DNA of 64,000 bases from Eledone cirrhosa (taxonomy: Eukaryota), in NCBI GenBank assembly GCA_964016885.1, contig OZ024741.1, positions 92,628,001 to 92,692,000 of the forward strand, in the 5' to 3' direction. The position numbers and the translations under genes are program-made. Positions within the stretch are counted from its first letter, which is position 1. Each line of letters opens with the position of its first letter. Of the stretch, positions 20,476 through 36,232 are shown one piece after another. A model generated the notes under the pieces. It was given only the letters and a program-made list of their open reading frames with translations. It was not told the DNA's origin and made no database searches.

Positions 20476-21311
20476 GGGTTCTCCCTAAAAATGAAAGGCA
20501 AGTTGTATGATGCCTGCATACGAACAGCAATGTTGCATGGCAGTGAGACCTGGGCATTGTGTGCAGAGGATATACGCAGACTAGAGAGGAACGAAGCTTG
20601 CATGCTCCGCTGGATGTGTAACAGTAATATACGTGAACGGCAAAGCATAAACAAACTAAGGAAAAAATTAGAAATAAGAGGGATCAGATGTTGTTTACTC
20701 GAGAGAAGGCTACGTTGGTATGGACACGTGATGCGCATGAAAGGCGATAGCTGTATAACAAAGTGCAGGGCAATAAAGATAGACGGTAGCCACGGAATAG
20801 GCAGACCTAGAAAAACCTGGGACGAGCTGATAAACTCCGACCTCACACACTTACACCTCTCCAAGACAATGTCACTGGACCGAGACCTTTGGCGGTACTC
20901 AGTAACAGAGAAGACCCGCCTTACCTAAATACATAGTAAAACCTACTACAGCCAGTAGGCATCTCTAACAAAATACACCCCGTCCCACCACCCGCACCCC
21001 ATCCACACCACCCCGTTCTATGTAAAGTTATGTTGGTGCCGCGCCATCCAGGCCGAAACAAATGAGATCGTGTAGGTGTCACGACAAAAAAACACACAGT
21101 CCACGCTGTAATGTGGCCGTGTAGGCAACACGGTAAAAACCTCCCAGACCCACACTGTAAATGTGGATGGTGTTAGGAAGGGCATCCAACTGTAGAAAAC
21201 CTGCCAGACAGTCCTATGCGAGCAAGACAATCACTCTTGCCTCAAGTGGGAATACCACTGTCCAAACCCATGCAAGCGTGGAACACGGACGTTAAACGTT
21301 GATGATGATGA
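20476..21311 (+). mobile_element. 5'-truncated RTE LINE (family A)
   Basis: [26 protein letters not shown]...EKTRLT followed by the 3' UTR and GAT tail; bounded by (AT)n tracts. Confidence 0.93.
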
Positions 21312-22057: not shown

Positions 22058-23705
22058 AGCCATGTATAAAGAAACAGTCAGTAAGGTTAGAATTAACAAC
22101 GAATATAGTGAAGAGTTTAGCGTAAAAGTTGGTGTCCATCAGGGCTCTGTTCTTAGCCTCCTACTATTTATTATTGCCCTTCAGGCTATAACAGAGGAGT
22201 TCAAGACCGGCTGCCCATGGGAACTCCTATACGCAGATGATCTAACGCTCATAGCTGAATCAATGACCGAACTAGAGAAGAAATTCCAAACATGGAAGCA
22301 CGGCCTAGAATCAAAAGGCCTTAAAATTAACCTGGCTAAGACTAAAGTTCTAGTTTGTAGGAAAGAAAATAGGGCGGCGGTCCCTTCCGGGAAATGGCCA
22401 TGCTCAGTGTGTAGGAAAGGCGTAGGTAGAAACTCCATTTTATGTCCCCAATGCAAAGTATGGGTGCATAAAAGATGTAGTGGGATCACAGGTAAGCTAA
22501 CTAAGAACATAGATTTTACATGTGGCCGGTGCTCTGGTGCAATAAGTAGCAGCAAGTGCCCACTAAATACTAGCTCTTTCAATTGCGCAGAGGGTTCTAT
22601 AGAAATAGTGGACAGCTTCCGTTACCTGGGTGACAAAATCAGCAGTGGGGGAGGGTGCTCTGAAAGTACAGTAGCTAGAGTCAGAACTGGATGGAAAAAG
22701 TTCAGAGAGCTTATACCACTATTAGCCGCTAGAGGGTTCTCCCTAAAAATGAAAGGCAGGTTATACGATGCCTGCATACGAACAGCAATGCTGCATGGCA
22801 GTGAGACCTGAGCATTGTGTGCAGAGGATATATGCAGACTAGAGAGGAATGAAGCTTGCATGCTCCGCTGGATGTGCAATAGTAATATACGTGAACAGCT
22901 AAGCATAAACGAACTAAGGAAAAAATTAGAAATAAGAGGGATCAGATGTTGTTTACTCGAGAGAAGGCTACATTGGTACGGTCACGTGATGCGCATGAAA
23001 GACGACAGCTGTATAACAAAGTGCAGGGCAATAAAGATAGACGGTAGCAACGGGGTAGGCAGACCCAGAAAAACCTGGGACGACATGATAAATTCCGACC
23101 TCACACGCTTACACCTCTCCAAGACAATGTCACTAGACCGAGACCTTTGGCGGTACTCAGTAATAGAGAAGACCCGCCTTACCTAAATACAAAGTAAAAA
23201 CCTACTACAGTCAGTAGGCATCTCTATCAAAACACCCCCCCGTCAAAATACACCCCGTCCCACCACCTCCACCCCATCCACACCGCCCCTTTCAATGTAA
23301 AGTTATGTTGGTCCCACAACATCCAGGCCGAAACAAATGAGATTGTGTAGGTGTCACGACAAAAAAACACACAGTCCACGCTGTAAATTTGGCCGTGTAG
23401 GCAACACGGTAAAAACCTCCCAGCCCCACACTGTAAATGTGGTTGGTGTTAGGAAGGGCATCCAGCTGTAGAAAACCCGCCAGACAGTCCACGTTGTAAT
23501 GTGGCCGTGTAGGCAACACGGTAAAAACCTCCCAGCCCCACACTGTAAATGTGGTTGGTGTTAGGAAGGGAATCCAGCTGTAGAAAACCCGCCAGACAGT
23601 CCTATGCGAGCAAGACAACCACTCTTGCCTCAAGTGGGAAAATCCCCGTCCAAACCCATGCAAGCGTGGAACACGGATGCTAAACCTAATGATGATGATG
23701 ATGAT
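22052..23705 (+). mobile_element. 5'-truncated RTE LINE (family A) with a tandem duplication in the 3' UTR
   Basis: ORFs 22062..22811 and 22815..23186 are separated by one TGG>TGA stop; LLYADDL present; (AT)n on both sides. Confidence 0.95.
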
Positions 23706-24433: not shown

Positions 24434-24690
24434 CATTGCTGTAGTGGAGTCTGTGCTGCTGTATGGGTCTGAGACTTGGACACTGACCAAGAAACTCACT
24501 CAGATGGTGGATGGGTGCTACATGGACACACTAGAAGAGGAAGACCAAGGTTAACGTATGTTGATGCCCTAAGGACAGACACTGGTCTGTTGGAGATGCA
24601 GGACATGGCAGCGATAATGAGGGACAGAGACCGCTGGATAGAACTCGTCCATGGATCTCGGGAATTTTACCCGCCTTAGATAGATAGATA
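24434..24690 (+). mobile_element. Internally deleted 3' fragment of a third RTE family with a (TAGA)n tail
   Basis: [20 protein letters not shown], then [11 protein letters not shown]...DRDRW; stop followed by TAGATAGATAGATA; embedded in AT-rich tracts. Confidence 0.75.
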
Positions 24691-24737
24691 CATATATATA
24701 CATATATATATATATATATACATATATATACATATAC

Positions 24738-24796
<59 letters not shown>

Positions 24797-25337
24797 CATA
24801 TATATACATATATATACATATATATACATATATACATATATATACATATATATACATATACATATATATACATATACATATATATACATATATATATATA
24901 TACAAATATATACATATATATACATATACATATATATACATATATATACATATACATATATATACATATATATACATATATATACATATATATATATACA
25001 TATATATACATATATATACATATATATATACATATATATACATATATATATACATATATATACATATATATACATATATATATATACATATATATATATA
25101 CATATACATATATATATATACATATATATACATATATATATATACATATATATATATACATATATATACATATATATATATACATATATATATATACATA
25201 TATATACATATATATATATATACATATATATATATACACATATATATATATTTATATATATACATATATATATACATAGTTGATACATATATATATACAC
25301 AGTTGAAAATTGCAAACTCGACTGTCACCACATATTA

Positions 25338-25376
25338 TGAACCTGAAGATTGCGAAAGCATGAAAGTACTTGTTCA
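25338..25376 (+). ncRNA. Minimal type I hammerhead ribozyme, U-U variant at the base of stem II
   Basis: TGAAC CTGAAGA T TGC-gaaa-GCA T GAAA GTAC T T GTTCA. 5-bp stem I, GNRA-capped stem II, palindromic stem III (AAGTACTT), CUU triplet. Confidence 0.7.
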
Positions 25377-25674
25377 ATTAACACTTAGAATTTAATATTC
25401 TATCATACGATTTCATTATAACATCATTATAATACCATTATATATTTTAAACAATTAAGTTAAAAATGTACATCTACATATGCATACTGAAATACTAGTG
25501 TGCATATGAATACACACACGTATACATATGTAGGTGTAACAAGTCTTTCACTGGTTGCTTTACTGTGAGCAACCCAGCTATTCTGTATGTAAACACACAG
25601 ACAAACCGGTTTTTAGAGTCATACTGGTTTTCGAGGGAACATCTTCCCTCTATTCTCCAGAAAGCCAGACAAGG

Positions 25675-25719
25675 AATATTGAACTAGTTTCGTTGTTGTT
25701 ACAACTCATCAGCAATATT
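25675..25719 (-). ncRNA. Minimal type I hammerhead ribozyme, canonical core
   Basis: Minus strand: AATATTG CTGATGA GTTGT-aaca-ACAAC GAAA CTAG T T CAATATT. 7-bp stem I, 5-bp stem II, palindromic stem III (AACTAGTT), GUU cleavage triplet. Confidence 0.8.
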
Positions 25720-25964
25720 TACCTATCTACCGGCCCTTCTGGAGAATTGTAAAAGCACATATCGTTATATGCTTTTTCTATGAAAATTAGTAGTGGGCAG
25801 ACTAATTTGCATAGAGTGTGAGTACGCACCGGTTCAGCGGAGACGATAAAAACAAATAACGAAACGAAATTAAATTTTGTTTCGTTTGTAACTCACTTTT
25901 GTATGACTGACGCTTAAACAATTAAGTTAAAAATGTACATCTACATATGCATACTGAAATACTA

Positions 25965-27290
25965 GACCTGACACTCATAGCTGAATCAATGACCGAACTA
26001 GAGAAGAAATTCCAAATATGGAAGCACGGCCTAGAATCAAAAGGCCTTAAAATTAACCTGGCTAAGACTAAAGTTCTAGTTTGTAGGAAAGAAAATAGGG
26101 CGGCGGTCCCTTCCGGGAAATGGCCATGCTCAGTCTGTAGGAAAGGCGTAGGTAGAAACTCCATTTTGTGTCCCAAATGCAAAGTTTGGGTGCATAAAAG
26201 ATGTAGTGGGATCACAGGTAAGCTAACTAAGAACATAGATTTTACATGTGGCCGGTGTTCTGGGGAAATAAGTAGCAGCAAGTGCCCACAAAATACTAGC
26301 TCTTTCAACTGCGCAGAGGGTTCTATAGAAATAGTGGACAGCTTCCGTTACCTGGGTGACAAAATCAGCAGTGGGGGAGGGTGCTCTGAAAGTACAGTAG
26401 CTAGAGTCAGAACTGGATGGAAAAAGTTCAGAGAGCTTATACCACTATTAGCCGCTAAAGGGTTCTCCCTAAAAATGAAAGGCAGGCTGTACGATGCCTG
26501 CATACGAACAGCAATGTTGCATGGCAGTGAGACCTGGGCATTGTGTGCAGAGGATATACGCAGACTAGAGAGAAACGAAGCTTGCATGCTCCGCTGGATG
26601 TGTAATAGTAATATACGTGAACGACAAAGCATAAACGAACTAAGGAAAAAATTAGAAATAAGAGGGATCAGATGTTGTTTACTAGAGAGAAGGCTACGTT
26701 GGTATGGTCACGTGATGCGCATGAAGGACGATAGCTGTATAACAAAGTGCAGGGCAATAAAGATAGACGGTAGCCACGGAATAGGCAGACCCAGAAAAAC
26801 CTGGGACGAGCTGATAAACTCCGACCTCACACACTTACACCTCACCAAGACAATGTCACTGGACCGAGACCTTTGGCGGTACTCAGTAATAGAGAAGACC
26901 CGCCTTACCTAAATACAAAGTAAAACCTACTCCAGTCAGTAGGCATCTCTAACAAAATACACCCCACCCCACCCCATCCACACCGCCCCCTTCTATGTAA
27001 AGTTATGTTGGTGCCACACCATCCAGGCCGAAACAAATGAAATCGTGTAGGTGTCACGACAAAAAAACACACAGTCCACGCTGTAATGTGGCCGTGTAGG
27101 CAACACGGTAAAAACCTCCCAGACCCACACTGTAAATGTGGTTGGTGTTAGGAAGGGCATCCAACTGTAGAAAACCTGCCAGACAGTCCTATGCGAGCAA
27201 GACAATCACTCTTGCCTCAAGTGGGAATACCCCCGTCCAAACCCATGCAAGCGTGGAACACGGACGTTAAACGTTGATGATGATGATGAT
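25965..27290 (+). mobile_element. 5'-truncated young RTE LINE (family A)
   Basis: Uninterrupted ORF from about the YADD motif to the stop (25947..26912 ORF), intact PHD-like finger, 3' UTR and (GAT)n tail running into (AT)n. Confidence 0.95.
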
Positions 27291-27624: not shown

Positions 27625-27759
27625 ATATTTATTAAATAACAGATTAAAGTTTAAGCAAAGAATCGCTGCTTTCACCCTTAACGGGATCTTCAGAAGATCC
27701 CGTTAAGGGTGAAAGCAGCGATTCTTTGCTTAAACTTTAATCTGTTATTTAATAAATAT
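27625..27759. repeat. Perfect 135-bp palindrome (67-bp arms, 1-nt centre at 27692)
   Basis: ATATTTATTAAATAAC...GGGATCTTC A GAAGATCCC...GTTATTTAATAAATAT. Confidence 0.95.
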
Positions 27760-28712
27760 TTGCTCTACGGTTCTTATATATTTGATATATATTTATCCTT
27801 ATCGAGCCCTTTGGATTTTAGTCTTCAATTTTATTATTATTACTATATATACATATATATATATATACATATATATACATATATATATATATATTCATAT
27901 ATATTCATATATATATATATATATTCATATATATATATATATATTCATATATATATATATATTCATATATATATATATATACATATATATACATATACAT
28001 ATATATACATATACATATATATACATATATATATATACATATACATATACATATATATATATATATTCATATATATATATATATTCATATATATATATAT
28101 ATTCATATATATATATATATACATATATATACATATACATATATATACATATATATATACATATACATATATATATATATATTCATATATATTCATATAT
28201 ATATATATATATATATACATATATACACACATATATATATATACATATATATACATATATACATATATATACATATATACACATATATATATACATATAT
28301 ATACATGAGGTAAATTTCTTTAAGTCGTTTGGAAGCCTCGACAATGCAAATGGGTAAATCTCCGGGTAAGATCTGGTGGTGGAGAGAGAGATGTAAGTGG
28401 GTGTACGTTGAGATGCGTGGCGTATATAAGACGTGTCGAGGAATGAAGGAAAGAGCATAAAGGATAAAATAAAAATAACAACACGAGAGAGAGTTACCTT
28501 GGGAGAGATTTAATTGTCCCTATATATTTCGGATTCACATCCATCAACTGGGGGATTTTTCCGGGGTGGGGGAAAGGTTGTCTGTCGGAAAGGTGCGAAA
28601 CGCGTCCTCCGCTGTTCGTTGTTTTGAATATCTGGCTATTCAAAACAACAAACAGCGGAGGATGCGTTTCGCACCTTTCCGACAAACAACCTTTGCCCCA
28701 CCAGTTAGTTGA

Positions 28713-28960
28713 TATAGACGAGTTTGAGTATATTTTACTATTACAAAGCTTCATCCAAAAAGTCGAGTATTTTAAATTTTTGTCTTTTAATGACCATATA
28801 AGTTGTGATTAAGAAGTCGAAGACTTCCTATTAAAATTCGAAAATGAGCATTTGTAATTCGCAAATCTCGATTTAAATGTCGAAGAAGTTGCCCCTATGT
28901 AGTTGTATGTGTTGTTATTTGTTTTTACGGTGCATTTATACACCAAATTTCTATCTTTAG
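28713..28960 (-). pseudogene. Penelope-like element GIY-YIG endonuclease fragment (Naiad/Chlamys-like)
   Basis: RNLVYKCTVK...YNYIGATSSTFKSRFANYKCSF...STS*SQLIWSLKDKNLKYSTFW...YSNSS; one internal stop. Confidence 0.75.
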
Positions 28961-28964
28961 CAAA

Positions 28965-29635
28965 AAAATTTCTGGTTGGTTGGTTGGTTCCACAACCAGA
29001 TGATTGTTTATATATTGTCAAAGTTCTTTCGTCACACATTCTGTGACCTCTTCAGTGACTGGGGATTCTTTTCTTTGTTTTTGTGCCTCTCCTTTGTTCT
29101 GTCCTACACCATCTTGTTTTTGTGTGTGTGTTGTGTGCTTAGTTTGCGCATGTGTTACATCCGGGTGTCTGTGTGTGTTTATATTCGTTTATTTATTTGT
29201 TTATTTACATGTTACTGGTTGGTTGTTTGTTCTATGTGCGTGTGTGTTTTCATTTTGTCCTTAATTGTAAGTTGTGATGTTGCTGTTCCACTCATGTTTT
29301 CTATTTAATTTTGGTTGGAGTTCATTTATGTTTATTGCCTCTGTGATTTGTCTAAACATTGTATCTTTTCTGTGTGTAGATTCTATTTTTATTTCTATGT
29401 TCTCTAATTTACCCTTATGTTCTATTTTAGCATGTTGGTAGAGTACAGATGATTCTTTACTATCTTGAAGGTCTCGCCAGTGTTCATTTATCCGTTCCTC
29501 TATACTACGAGCTGTCTCACCTATGTACACTATATTTTTATCTCTACATTGTCCTTCAGTACATCTTATGCTATATACTACATTTCTAGTTTTACAGTTA
29601 ATATGGGGGTTTAATTTACAGATTAATTTACAGAT
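28965..29635 (-). mobile_element. Penelope-like element 3' fragment: GIY-YIG (Neptune/Poseidon-like) plus 3' terminal repeat region with a hammerhead
   Basis: NCKTRNVVYSIRC...YIGETARSIEERINEH...HAKIEH...EAI...LNRKHE (ORF 29261..29530 extended upstream); the 3' region 28965-29120 is homologous to 580-720. Confidence 0.8.
29017..29059 (-). ncRNA. Minimal hammerhead ribozyme in a Penelope-like 3' terminal repeat
   Basis: Minus strand: GTCA CTGAAGA g GTCACA-gaatg-TGTGAC GAAA GAAC T T TGAC; one extra G after the core. Confidence 0.65.
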
Positions 29636-31626: not shown

Positions 31627-32847
31627 ATGGCTTAGTGATTAGAGCATTGGCCTTGCAATCGAAAGGTTGTGAGTTCAATTCTCAGACCGGGTGATGTGTT
31701 GTTTCCTTGAGCAAGACCTTTATTTCACATTGCTCTAGTTTACTCAGCTGTAGAAATGAGATATATATATATAATCACCATTTAACGTCTGTTTTTCATT
31801 GCTTGCATGAGTTAGATGGATTGTCATGTTATGAAACAAGTCAAGTCAGGTGACCTACTTGCTCATACAGATCTGTATTTTGACTTGGTTTCTACAGCTG
31901 GATGCCTTTCTATATGCCAACCACATTACAGTGTGAACTGGGTGCTTTTTTGTCAAGTCACCAATACGACCACCTTACAGGTTGGACTGGATGCATTTTT
32001 CTTATGTCCCGAACACAACCACCTTACAGGATGGACTGCGGGCTTTTTTTGTGGCACCAGATCAGCTTACAGGGGGAATTAGCACTATATCATTATCATT
32101 GTTTTAACATCCATTTTCCCTACGATCAAGGGTTGAACAGGTCTACAGAGACCAAGTCAGTACTAAAGTGGTGGGTACTGATCTCCCAAATAAGCCAGGG
32201 ATCTGTTGTCTTGCTTTTGTATGGTTTCAATTCTACCAGGTGCACAGGGGAGGTTGTCATGTTTTTGACACAACTGAAGGTCCTCCCAACCCTTTGTTTA
32301 GCAAACTTCTACGGCTGGACACCCTTCCTATCACCAACCTCTTTACAGCATGTACTTAGTGTGTTTGTGTAGATCACCAAACACTAGGGGGAAGCTGTCA
32401 TTTGGATGTGGTGTCTGTATACATATACAGTTGCAGGGCAGCTGTGTAGTAAAGGAGTTCAGTTCACAGCCAAGTGATTCTGGGATGAATCCCACTTTCC
32501 ATGAGAAACTTGAGCAAGTGTCTTCTAATATAACCTCAAGTTGATCTATACCTTGTGAGTAGAATTTGGTTGACAGAAATTGCAGATACCTGTCATGGCC
32601 AGCCCTTACTAACACGGATAACGGACATAAAATTATGATAATATATATATATATAATATAAATTTCATAAGATTGACATACTAATTGAAATCAGTAATAT
32701 TTGACAAAATTTAAATCCATTTAATGCAATATATATGTATGTGCATATATATATATATATATATATACACATACATATATATTGCATTAAATGGATTTAA
32801 ATGTTGTCAAATATATATATATGTGTGTGTGTATGTATGTATATATA

Positions 32848-35800
32848 TTTAAAAGGTCACTCTAACGAGGTTGTAGAATTGCTTGAACGTAAGGAGGTTG
32901 ATGTTTGTTGTATCCAAGAGACCAGGTGGAGGGGTGGGTCTGCTAGATTCATTGTGGATAGAAAACGGTGCTATAAGCTTTTCTGGGTGGGAAATGACAA
33001 TGGGCTGGGTGGGGTAGGAATCATGATAGCAGAAAAGTGGGTAGATAAGATAATAGATGTAAATAAAGTAAACGACAGAATAATTAAAATAAGACTTGTC
33101 CTAAATAGAACTACTGTGACAGTAATATCTGCGTATGCACGCCAATCCAGACTGCCTGGCGCTATAAAAGACAGATTCTATGAGACATTGATGCTCACAA
33201 CCTCCCAAATAACCGACAGTGACTACATAATTATTGCTGGCGTCCTAAATGGTCACGTTGGACAACATTGTGACGGCTATGACGGAATCCATGGAGGCTA
33301 TGGGTTTGGTACTAGAAATGAGGAAGGCTCCAGAATCCTGGAATTCTGTGATGCAAATAACCTAACTATCTGTAACACTAACTTCAAAATATGAGATAAT
33401 CACTTGATCACCTATAGATCAGGGGAACACGCCAGTCAGATAGATTATATCCTTACCAGAAGACGTGATAGAGTGTCTGTTCTAAACACTAAATCCCTCC
33501 CCCATGAAGAATGCACCTCCCAACATAGACTCATAGTCAGCAACCTCATAGTCAGGACAAGACGTACTCAACAACAGAGGAGGACTATCCTCAGGAGAAA
33601 AATATGGAAGCTAAAGGACCCCACAACCAGTAATAAGTTTCAAAGCATATTACTTGATGCTTTCGGCAGTAAGGAAGAGCAATTTGAGTCGTACAATATA
33701 GAGGAACAGTGGGAATTCCTGAAAGCTAACCTGCTGAAGGCAGCAGATGAAGTCTGTGGCTGGAGCAGGCCTATAGGCAGGAGGAGAGTAACATGGTGGT
33801 GGAACAGTAAGGTGGAGGAGTCAATTAAGGCCAAAAAGCAGGCTTGGAAAGTATGGCGGGATGGGGGAAGTAGAGAAGACTATCAAGTGGCCAGGAGGGA
33901 AGCTAGGAGACAAGTGTACTTCGCAAGAAGGGAAGCAGAGGAAAGAAAGTTCAAACATGTCTACAACGCAAGGACCAAAAACGTGAGGTGTTCAGGATTG
34001 CTAGGCAATGTGTCAAGGAAAACCGTGATATTGTCGGGGAGAAGTGTGTCCTTAATGATGATGGTGTACTTGCCATCACTGATGCTGATAAGAAGGTAGC
34101 TTGGAAGTGTCACTACGAAAGGCTACTAAATGAGGAGAATAAATGGGAGAAAGACAGTCTCCCCCACATCGATCCAATAGAGGGACCAACAGTGCTAGTT
34201 GAAGGTAGTATAATAAGTAAGGCAATCAAAGATATGAAGACGGTTAGGGCGGCTGGGCATTCGGAAATAGTTGCTGAAATGCTGAAAGCATCTGGAACGG
34301 TGGGACACACTATGGTCACCCGGATAGTAAACCAAGTCATACAGAATGGGGCCGTTTCGAAGGACTGGCGTAGCAGCAGCATCATTAACTGCTACAAGGG
34401 TAAAGGAGATGCCTTAGATAGGGGTAACTATAGAGGCATTAAATTAATCGACTAAGTCATGAAGGTCACAGAAAAAGTAATAGCGCAACTAATCAGAGAA
34501 CGAATTGATCTAGATGAAATGCAGTTCGGGTTTGTGTCAGGTAAAAGTACCACAGATGCTCTTTTCATTGTACGACAACTACAGGAGAAGTACCTAGCTA
34601 AAAGTAAACCCCTATACTTAGCTTTTGTTGACTTGGAGAAAGCCTTTGACAGAGTCCCCCGCTCCATTATCTGGTGGGCTCTTAGAAAACTAGGTGTTGA
34701 TGAATGGCTTGTGAGAGCTATACAAGCCATGTATAAAGAAACAGTCAGCAAGGTTAGAATTAACAACGAATATAGTGAAGAGTTTAGCGTAAAAGTTGGT
34801 GTTCATCAGGGCTCCGTTCTTAGCCCCCTACTATTTATTATTGCTCTTCAGGCTATAACAGAGGAGTTCAAGACCAGCTGCCCATGGGAACTCCTATATG
34901 CAGATGATCTAACACTCATAGCTGAATCAATGGTTGAACTAGAGAAGAAATTCCAAACATGGAAGCATGGCCTAGAATCAAAAGGCCTTAAAGTTAACTT
35001 GTCTAAGACTAAAGTTCTAGTTTGTAGGAAGGAAAATAGGGCACCGGTACCATCTGGGAAATGGCCATGCTCAGTATGTAGGAAAGGAGTAGGCAGAAAC
35101 TCCATTTTATGTCCTAAATGCAAAGTATGGGTGCATAAAAGATGTAGTGGGATCACAGGTAAGCTAACTAAGAATATAGATTTTATAGGTGGCCGGTGCT
35201 CTGGTGCAATAAGTAGCAGCAAGTGCCCACAGAATACTAGCTCATTCCATTGCACAGATGGTTCTATAGAAATAGTGGACACCTTCCGTTACCTGGGTGA
35301 CAAAATCAGCAGTGGGGGAGGGTGCTCTGAAAGTACAGTAGCTAGAGTCAGAACGGGATGGAGAGCTTATACCACTATTGGCCGCTAAAGGGTTCTCTCT
35401 AAAAATGAAAGGCAGGCTGTATGATGCCTGCATACGAACAGCAATGTTACATGGCAGTGAGACCTGGGCATTGTGTGCAGAGGATATACGCAGACTGGAG
35501 AGGAACGAAGCTTGCATGCTCCGCTGGATGTGTAATAGTAATATACGTGAACGGCAAAGCATAAACGAACTAAGGGAGAAATTAGAAATAAGAGGGATCA
35601 GATGTTGTTTACTAGAGAGAAGACTACGTTGGTATGGTCACGTGATGCACATGAAAGACGACAGCTGTATAAAAAAGTGCAGGGCAATAAAAATAGACGG
35701 TAGCCACGGAGTAGGCAGACCCAGAAAAACTTGGGACGACTTGATAAATTCCGACCTCACACACTTACACCTCTCCAAGACAATGTCACTGGACCGAGAT

Positions 35801-36232
35801 CTTTAGCGCTACACAGTAATACAGAAGATTCGCCTTGACGAAGTACAAAGCGAAACCTACAGTCAGTAGGCAACTCTAACAAAAATACACCCCTGTCCCA
35901 CTACCCCCACCCCATCCACACCACCCCCTTCCATGTGAAGTTATGTTGGTACCACAACATCCAGTCCAAAACACATGAGGTTGTGTAGGTGTCACGACAA
36001 AAAAAAACAAAAAAACACAGCCCACGCTGTAATGTGGCCGTGTAGGTAACACGGTAAAAACCTCCCAGTCCACATTGTAAACGTGATTGGTGTTAAGAAG
36101 GCCATCCAGCCGTAGAAAAGCCGCCAGACAGTCCTATACGAGCAGGACAACCAATGTTGCCCCAAGTGGGAAAACTCCCGTCCAAACCCATGCAAGCGTG
36201 GAAGATGGACGTATGATGATGATGATGATGAT
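32848..36232 (+). mobile_element. Near-full-length, inactivated RTE-clade LINE (family A): APE endonuclease, RT, PHD-like finger, 3' UTR, (GAT)n tail
   Basis: APE motifs VCCIQETRW, ISAYA, LNGHVG, SQIDYIL; RT motifs [40 protein letters not shown]; C-terminal LRWYGHV and GRPRKTW. Stops at ~33392, ~34453 and ~35804; frameshifts near 33965 and 35362. The first APE motif is missing. Confidence 0.95.

Follow-up and report, generated by a model that had tools for sequence, protein, structure and literature searches.

The ribozyme-bearing segment 25299..25965 of the analyzed DNA (hereafter, the window is the whole 64-kb stretch, which belongs to the 3.0-Gb genome of Eledone cirrhosa and is dense in (TA)n repeats and LINE fragments) is not a single module: the end of a Penelope-like element (PLE), termed family B, an insertion of a tandemly repeated element, termed family A, and a LINE directly abut one another (Table 1). 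Family A is a new and young family of a known kind, the non-LTR retrozymes, and family B is an ordinary PLE end. We consider it probable that the minus-strand part of the segment is a young copy of a 467-bp non-LTR retrozyme lodged in a cut-off PLE end, and that this retrozyme likely spreads as a ribozyme-made RNA circle copied by a PLE enzyme into AT-rich DNA.

The division into two elements follows from genome-wide searches. A query of 25300-25965 gave at least 179 matches (40 scored of 923 candidates), all covering only positions from 25447 onward, and a query of 25296-25460 gave a different set of at least 54 matches (40 scored of 218 candidates). The halves of the single module with convergent ribozymes proposed in the first-pass annotation thus have separate sets of copies and the module falls apart, while the accompanying suggestion that one element had been inserted into another holds, with family A sitting in the cut-off family B. 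The description of the DNA as ribozyme-bearing, non-autonomous, and of retrozyme or Penelope type is likewise borne out. The 52-bp direct repeat proved to be exact, with no extension possible on either side; however, it is not the long target duplication it had been taken for, since in every other copy examined the 52 bp are part of the 467-bp tandem unit, and the second copy is therefore the start of a second unit. A one-module reading, with convergent ribozymes and an inner part flanked by a 52-bp target duplication, draws on the exactness of this repeat and on its bracketing of the minus-strand part; its probability is close to nil, because the 52 bp lie within the unit in all copies and families A and B occur separately elsewhere.

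Table 1. Features in and around the ribozyme-bearing segment, in window positions.
Feature	Positions	Strand	Basis or remark
(TA)n-type microsatellite	24676..25298	none	sequence; flanks of other copies; families A and B usually insert into such repeats
Start of a solo PLE 3' terminal repeat of ~250 nt (family B), broken off at family A	25299..25446	plus	
Family B type I hammerhead motif	25338..25376	plus	of the PLE type, with helix II weak and helix III palindromic
Single arm of a family A insertion, amounting to 1.11 of the 467-bp retrozyme units	25447..25965	minus (RNA sense)	
52-bp repeat, first copy	25447..25498	minus	left edge is the fixed short 3' terminus of family A
Structural hairpin, non-hammerhead	25554..25575	minus	folding; compensatory pairs between subfamilies
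Structural hairpin, non-hammerhead	25634..25651	minus	compensatory pairs between subfamilies; no CUGANGA core
Long helix prolonging helix I of the family A hammerhead	25652..25749	minus	folding
Family A type I hammerhead motif, canonical size	25675..25719	minus	palindromic helix III
TATA-like element, weak in family A	25765..25771	minus	41-43 nt past the 12-bp motif
12-bp octamer-containing motif, candidate promoter element	25802..25813	minus	same sequence as the -78 element of one U6 gene in this genome
Family A tail segment, ~69 nt, with hairpin	25846..25913	minus	between the short and long termini
Family A fixed long terminus	25846	minus	internal in the window copy
52-bp repeat, second copy	25914..25965	minus	start of another tandem unit, which stops at a random 5' end
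5'-truncated LINE	25966..27290	plus	ORF 25926-26912; PHD-finger match; other window copies

As judged from its sequence, family B is the 3' terminal repeat of a PLE of the Neptune or Nematis type, the two not being told apart. Its segment in the window is 97% identical over 133 nt to the 3' region of one PLE (L155), and family B sequence lies downstream of the RT and GIY-YIG ORFs in five of the six loci of one PLE cluster. The placement with Neptune/Nematis follows from the CX4CxxC linker, a CX2-5CxxC linker being the criterion for these two types (PMC8557442; this and the sources below are represented by the accessible parts of their text). Inverted copies of family B carry a hammerhead variant and a tail of ~50 nt at one end, and each of the nine two-armed loci combines one long and one short terminus. 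The starts of 29 family B arms, from 20 loci, fall within 8 nt of a single point, which lies ~30 nt past a TATA box and 73 nt upstream of the predicted cut site; the query favors such starts, and nine second arms, which were unranked, show the identical start. Because copies begin upstream of the cut site, the family B templates were evidently uncut, and the fixed start is as expected of enzyme run-off from a linear, uncut RNA. Copies of family B (L032-L050) begin at what would be the transcription start of the PLE terminal repeat, as a SINE-like by-product of short, uncut transcripts.

In the window, family B breaks off at an AT-rich site where family A begins, and its remainder is absent. 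Only the short-terminus arm of family A has been kept; the truncated LINE stands in place of the other arm and the rest of family B, which were likely deleted when one of the elements inserted. The 5'-truncated end of the LINE, which we take to belong to an RTE-like clade, is joined head to head with the 5' end of the family A arm (25965/25966, at most one shared base). The closest other copies of this LINE family in the window (22242-23705, 20476-21311, and 32801-36232) are 89-96% identical to it, and one of them is long, with stops and frameshifts. That the neighboring LINE mobilizes family A, the 25965/25966 junction marking a joint insertion, is highly improbable: the LINE is abundant and adjoins family A here with hardly any shared sequence, yet family A lacks a 3' tail of the LINE kind and has termini that conform to the PLE pattern, and no LINE junction was recognized by eye in the 30-nt flanks of 39 other insertions.

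Family A is a young, multi-copy family present at many sites of the genome, as a search for copy number, a check proposed in the first-pass annotation, revealed. The best matches are 98-99% identical, many of them at 467-bp spacing, and the window copy differs from the family majority by two private changes. The unit has a GC content of 36.6% and contains no ORF of at least 150 aa, in line with the earlier observation of no recognizable coding sequence; a search for a tRNA gene within it found none. Arms comprise up to ~12 units. One array of ~18.5 units consists of a single haplotype, and another is built of two alternating unit types, with an identical register on the two arms. Family A-related sequence also occurs in contigs from two other organisms, in one of them with a 467-nt tandem joint. 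Internal units of two loci (L133 and L132) carry duplications of 13 and 9 nt, respectively, immediately within the short terminus; every second unit of L133 has one.

Both hammerhead motifs reported in the first-pass annotation were recovered. In the plus-strand motif, helix I is formed by 25338-25342 and 25372-25376, the core starts at 25343, the 8-nt palindrome occupies 25364-25371, and the CUU triplet places the predicted cut after 25371. This motif gave no Rfam match at E values up to 10 and on its own folds no better than shuffled sequences (z 0.0); what supports it is its location within the terminal repeat of a PLE. The minus-strand motif has its 8-nt palindrome at 25682-25689 and a GUU triplet, with a predicted cut between 25682 and 25681. 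It had been called canonical and minimal, of which the canonical size stands and the minimal form does not: helix I, of 7 bp, is prolonged into the long helix (z -4.7), and helix II has 4-5 bp with a G-C pair at its base. Such a motif fits the canonical animal type I hammerhead with a weak palindromic helix III (PMC4209133). The suggested Rfam search identified it as Hammerhead_HH9 (RF02275) at 38.6 bits and an E value of 3.4e-8, below the gathering score of 52; the core, the size of helix II, and the internal-loop-extended helix I align over the whole model, whereas helix III lacks the loop insert and the motif, unlike HH9, belongs to a mobile repeat. Rfam matches at gathering level were absent from the entire window, and all matches to miRNA models, which fell on TA repeats and hairpins, were likewise below gathering and were rejected.

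Two further minus-strand motifs had been described as hammerhead-like combinations of a core, stem II, and GAAA. Neither has a CUGANGA core, core scans missed both, and we rejected them as hammerheads. Their hairpins are real and show compensatory substitutions from one subfamily to another; in the predicted fold, the helix I extension of the family A hammerhead takes in the first pseudo-core. The claim of high structure is well supported for family A, with a circular monomer from cut to cut reaching -153 kcal/mol (z -10.7, 60 shuffles), and cofolding agrees with the idea that a palindromic helix III favors dimers, two copies of either hammerhead motif being predicted to pair there.

Covariation, another of the proposed checks, was found as a compensatory change in helix II between family A subfamilies. 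At least three further families of hammerhead repeats (C, D, and E; L172-L201) have different helices and other helix III palindromes. The 18 sequences compared, from these three families and family A, differ in their helices and have an unchanged core. Helix II is paired in 79% of the cells of this comparison and helix I in 86%, compared to a mean of 68% and a maximum of 81% after shuffling, a control that is supportive, not decisive, as it is lenient: the families are related, and the helix I register was picked for maximal pairing. Since the MAFFT alignment was out of register for family D, the counting of pairs relied on anchors.

The integration footprint of family A was read from 54 insertions, 40 of them obtained by the first search and 14 by using the tail as query; duplicates were dropped, the window locus was counted once, and two loci (L223 and L228) were merged. 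As top BLAST matches, these loci are biased to long, young copies. Inverted parts are present in 36 of the 54. One long and one short terminus were combined in 31, with no insertion having two long or two short termini; in another five a single inverted piece is non-terminal, and the remaining 18 consist of one arm. In the ribozyme sense, the 3' ends are fixed at two sites 69 nt apart, corresponding to window positions 25448 and 25846, and in most cases they adjoin (TA)n, which masks any target duplication around the copies; in non-LTR retrozymes such duplications, where they occur, exceed 4 bp. The short terminus may represent a start of reverse transcription without the tail. The arms of one insertion agree at 821 of 838 polymorphic-site comparisons (31 loci), compared to a mean of 71% and a maximum of 88% in 5000 shuffles, although fully identical arms were found in only 18 of the 29 informative insertions. 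The 93 inner 5' ends are spread evenly around the unit, none of them at the cut site, and show no convincing pile-up at the predicted start or cut site. In a separate observation, the end of the family B tail (L166) contains an exact 15-nt match complementary to family A RNA at 25715-25729, just upstream of the ribozyme; three of the 93 inner ends lie at its edge, a post hoc coincidence in low-complexity sequence.

Partial tandems, an inverted 5' copy, a tail at one end, and an AT-rich target are the marks of PLE-type integration, and all of them are present in family A. In vitro, the Poseidon PLE of the anole uses two start sites of reverse transcription, which define the tail, cuts and extends both strands, and has an enzyme predicted to be a dimer (PMC11167929). 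Two-site priming by a PLE on a single endless RNA, likely a circle, would be expected to leave the footprint seen in family A. Its template appears effectively endless because of the even 5' ends and the shared haplotypes, as opposed to the fixed start of family B. A circle is the simplest endless template, and the main rival is a long uncut multimer, i.e., the same element and PLE-type integration with a linear template and a mostly idle ribozyme. We consider this rival unlikely. A long uncut transcript of a homogeneous array would give the same shared haplotypes and flat 5' ends, the templates of family B were evidently uncut, and PLE insertion in vitro did not depend on cleavage by the hammerhead (PMC11167929). 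However, random 5' truncation can only shorten arrays, yet one young insertion has ~12 + ~6 near-identical units; family A has no fixed 5' end near a start site; and the ribozyme core is invariant over four families while the helices covary.

Spread at the DNA level, through satellite expansion, rolling-circle replication, or extrachromosomal DNA circles, would account for tandem arrays of near-identical units, and one array with a two-unit period and a 13-nt duplication may have expanded in this way after insertion. As the general mode it is very unlikely: fixed termini occur only at the 3' end of the ribozyme-sense strand, the pairing of a long with a short terminus recurs in family B, a bona fide PLE repeat, and private changes are mostly confined to single units in several arrays.

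In the cycle that we propose for family A, transcription, cleavage, circularization, and the PLE enzyme would act as follows. A tandem array would be transcribed, probably from the octamer and TATA module ~100 nt upstream of the ribozyme; neighboring hammerheads would pair by the palindromic helix III and cut out RNA of unit length; and a host ligase would close it. A PLE protein might then nick both strands of a (TA)n site and use the two fixed sites of a single RNA for priming, a different site for each strand, after which each cDNA would run a random length around the circle and the two cDNAs would join head to head. It speaks against this cycle that of nine retrozyme dimers tested in Xenopus only one was cleaved (bioRxiv 10.64898/2026.07.22.740005).

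Family A has every testable defining feature of a non-LTR retrozyme, with cleavage and circles as predictions: a hammerhead in each tandem unit, multimers, and neither coding capacity nor LTR organization. One such feature is found in many family A insertions and not in the window copy, which has only one hammerhead. Like the animal non-LTR retrozymes described in the accessible parts of PMC7229834 and bioRxiv 10.64898/2026.07.22.740005, family A is a non-coding tandem repeat of a few hundred bp with low GC content, one canonical type I hammerhead with a weak palindromic helix III per unit, a strong monomer fold, and co-existing PLEs. Its unit is just above the range of 150-450 bp in the first source and within that of 51-972 bp in the second. 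Paired termini, one-haplotype inverted arms, and a promoter motif do not feature in these parts of either source, and a wider literature search, in which subscription papers and supplements were thinly covered, found no paired termini or U6-type motif for retrozymes. Mobilization of retrozymes by PLEs has been proposed from co-occurrence and sequence kinship (PMC7229834; bioRxiv 10.64898/2026.07.22.740005).

Family A also resembles the PLEs with a C-terminal GIY-YIG domain (the anole Poseidon PAc, PMC11167929; PMC8557442; PMC4209133) in its partial tandems, inverted 5' copy, tail at one end, and AT-rich or microsatellite targets; those elements have a hammerhead in their terminal repeat, and family B is such a repeat. 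In contrast, family A codes for no protein, and its tail of ~69 nt (~50 nt in family B) is longer than the 30-40 nt of these elements. Its sequence also matched no sampled PLE end, i.e., none in any of nine PLE clusters, which comprise the 46 loci parsed in a sample of 50 from 10,595 GIY-YIG candidates. Matches similar to families A and C in three PLE loci (L162, L163, and L075) were rejected as PLE ends, being separate insertions.

A candidate driver of transcription emerged from the comparison of family A with family C (2673 candidates), which aligns with it at ~70% over 118 nt. Upstream of the ribozyme both contain the same 12-mer with an octamer, which we take to be a POU/Oct binding site. 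Allowing at most one change, this 12-mer was found at -77 to -79 in eight of 12 U6 loci and at -271 in the other four, and also at -77 to -79 in the single MRP locus and in the best of six U6atac loci. Of 3000 shuffled units, 3 contained it by chance, and 218 kb of background sequence had a single occurrence. It is not a general snRNA element, being absent within two changes from the 330 nt upstream of 12 U1 and 14 U2 loci. Among the small-RNA gene loci compared (L101-L126, L232-L245), those of U1 and U2 have in common a short element at about -56 and, at about -30, a TATA-like box; U1, U2, and U6 share a distal motif at about -250 to -267. In the U6 cluster on contig C19 (L119, L120, L122-L124), four or five loci have ~190 bp extra between the motif and the gene.

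A genome-wide pattern of motif plus hammerhead core, written to exclude the main alleles of families A and C and, as it demands the motif, blind to motif-less families, gave 698 matches, compared to none for a reversed control. The first 30 of these sort into four or more families, with a spacer identity of only 30-44% in ungapped comparison; these diverged families have retained the motif upstream of the hammerhead and probably share one origin. Two pattern matches on viral contigs form neither helix I nor helix II and were taken as chance. A TATA-like element lies 40-42 nt past the motif in 23 of the 30 repeat loci, at 50 nt in one, and is lacking in six; in five genes (U6, MRP, and U6atac) the spacing is 46-48 nt, so the repeats are off by ~5 bp. 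For a U6-type Pol III promoter the upstream element is thus present, and a TATA element at the fixed distance is not; in insects the spacing of Pol III promoters is tightly conserved (PMC1761439). There are no T runs for 215 nt past the cut site, and the full family A unit has two T5 and two T4 runs; in family D, T runs follow soon after the ribozyme. In families A, C, and E the motif also pairs as the arm of a hairpin, with a matching change in family E (by eye), and family D has kept the motif though its pairing partner differs. Copies of family A with a change at motif position 11 evidently still spread.

Among the interpretations of this motif, a Pol III type 3 promoter element is tentatively suggested, as tentatively as a Pol II octamer and TATA promoter; a role in RNA structure, or a relic, is possible if somewhat doubtful. 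Convergence on an optimal POU site would explain the match with U6 without capture. Internal promoters are described for two other tandem repeats with hammerheads, an snRNA-type Pol II promoter in newt satellite 2 and a Pol III promoter in the schistosome hammerhead satellite (both cited in PMC2220036). The family A motif differs from these in matching the upstream element of U6, MRP, and U6atac, which U1 and U2 of this genome lack, and in lying closer to its TATA-like element.

The value of family A lies in its unusually clear integration footprint and its testable promoter candidate. We tentatively suggest, as an idea that may well fail, that the retrozyme superfamily in this genome expresses itself through a shifted U6-type element, with read-through, circles cut by the hammerheads, and a dimeric Penelope enzyme priming both strands at two fixed sites on the circle. 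If this is true, the strict combination of one long and one short arm of a single haplotype would be direct genomic proof of the way in which animal ribozyme circles are integrated, and the promoter would explain the constitutively high expression of retrozymes. The write-back of retrozyme circles and its enzyme are an open question in the accessible text of PMC7229834 and bioRxiv 10.64898/2026.07.22.740005. Given a young family A, priming sites mapped to a few bases, and PLE ORFs in this genome that are open for 844-1096 aa, the existing in vitro assay could test two-site priming on circles. The strict pairing of termini also constrains the mechanism of PLEs themselves, and the shared octamer motif offers a concrete candidate driver of retrozyme transcription and maps the U6-type upstream element of this animal.

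Further PLE-related sequence lies downstream in the window. Inverted pieces at 27630-27846, 92-96% like the locus L080, include a hammerhead-like core on the minus strand near 27657-27693. A minus-strand fragment at 28936-29625, with a hammerhead motif near 29020-29055, is 93% like the PLE locus L060 and 86% like L154, and a long, near-perfect inverted repeat at 28584-28683 is probably the junction of another two-armed insertion.
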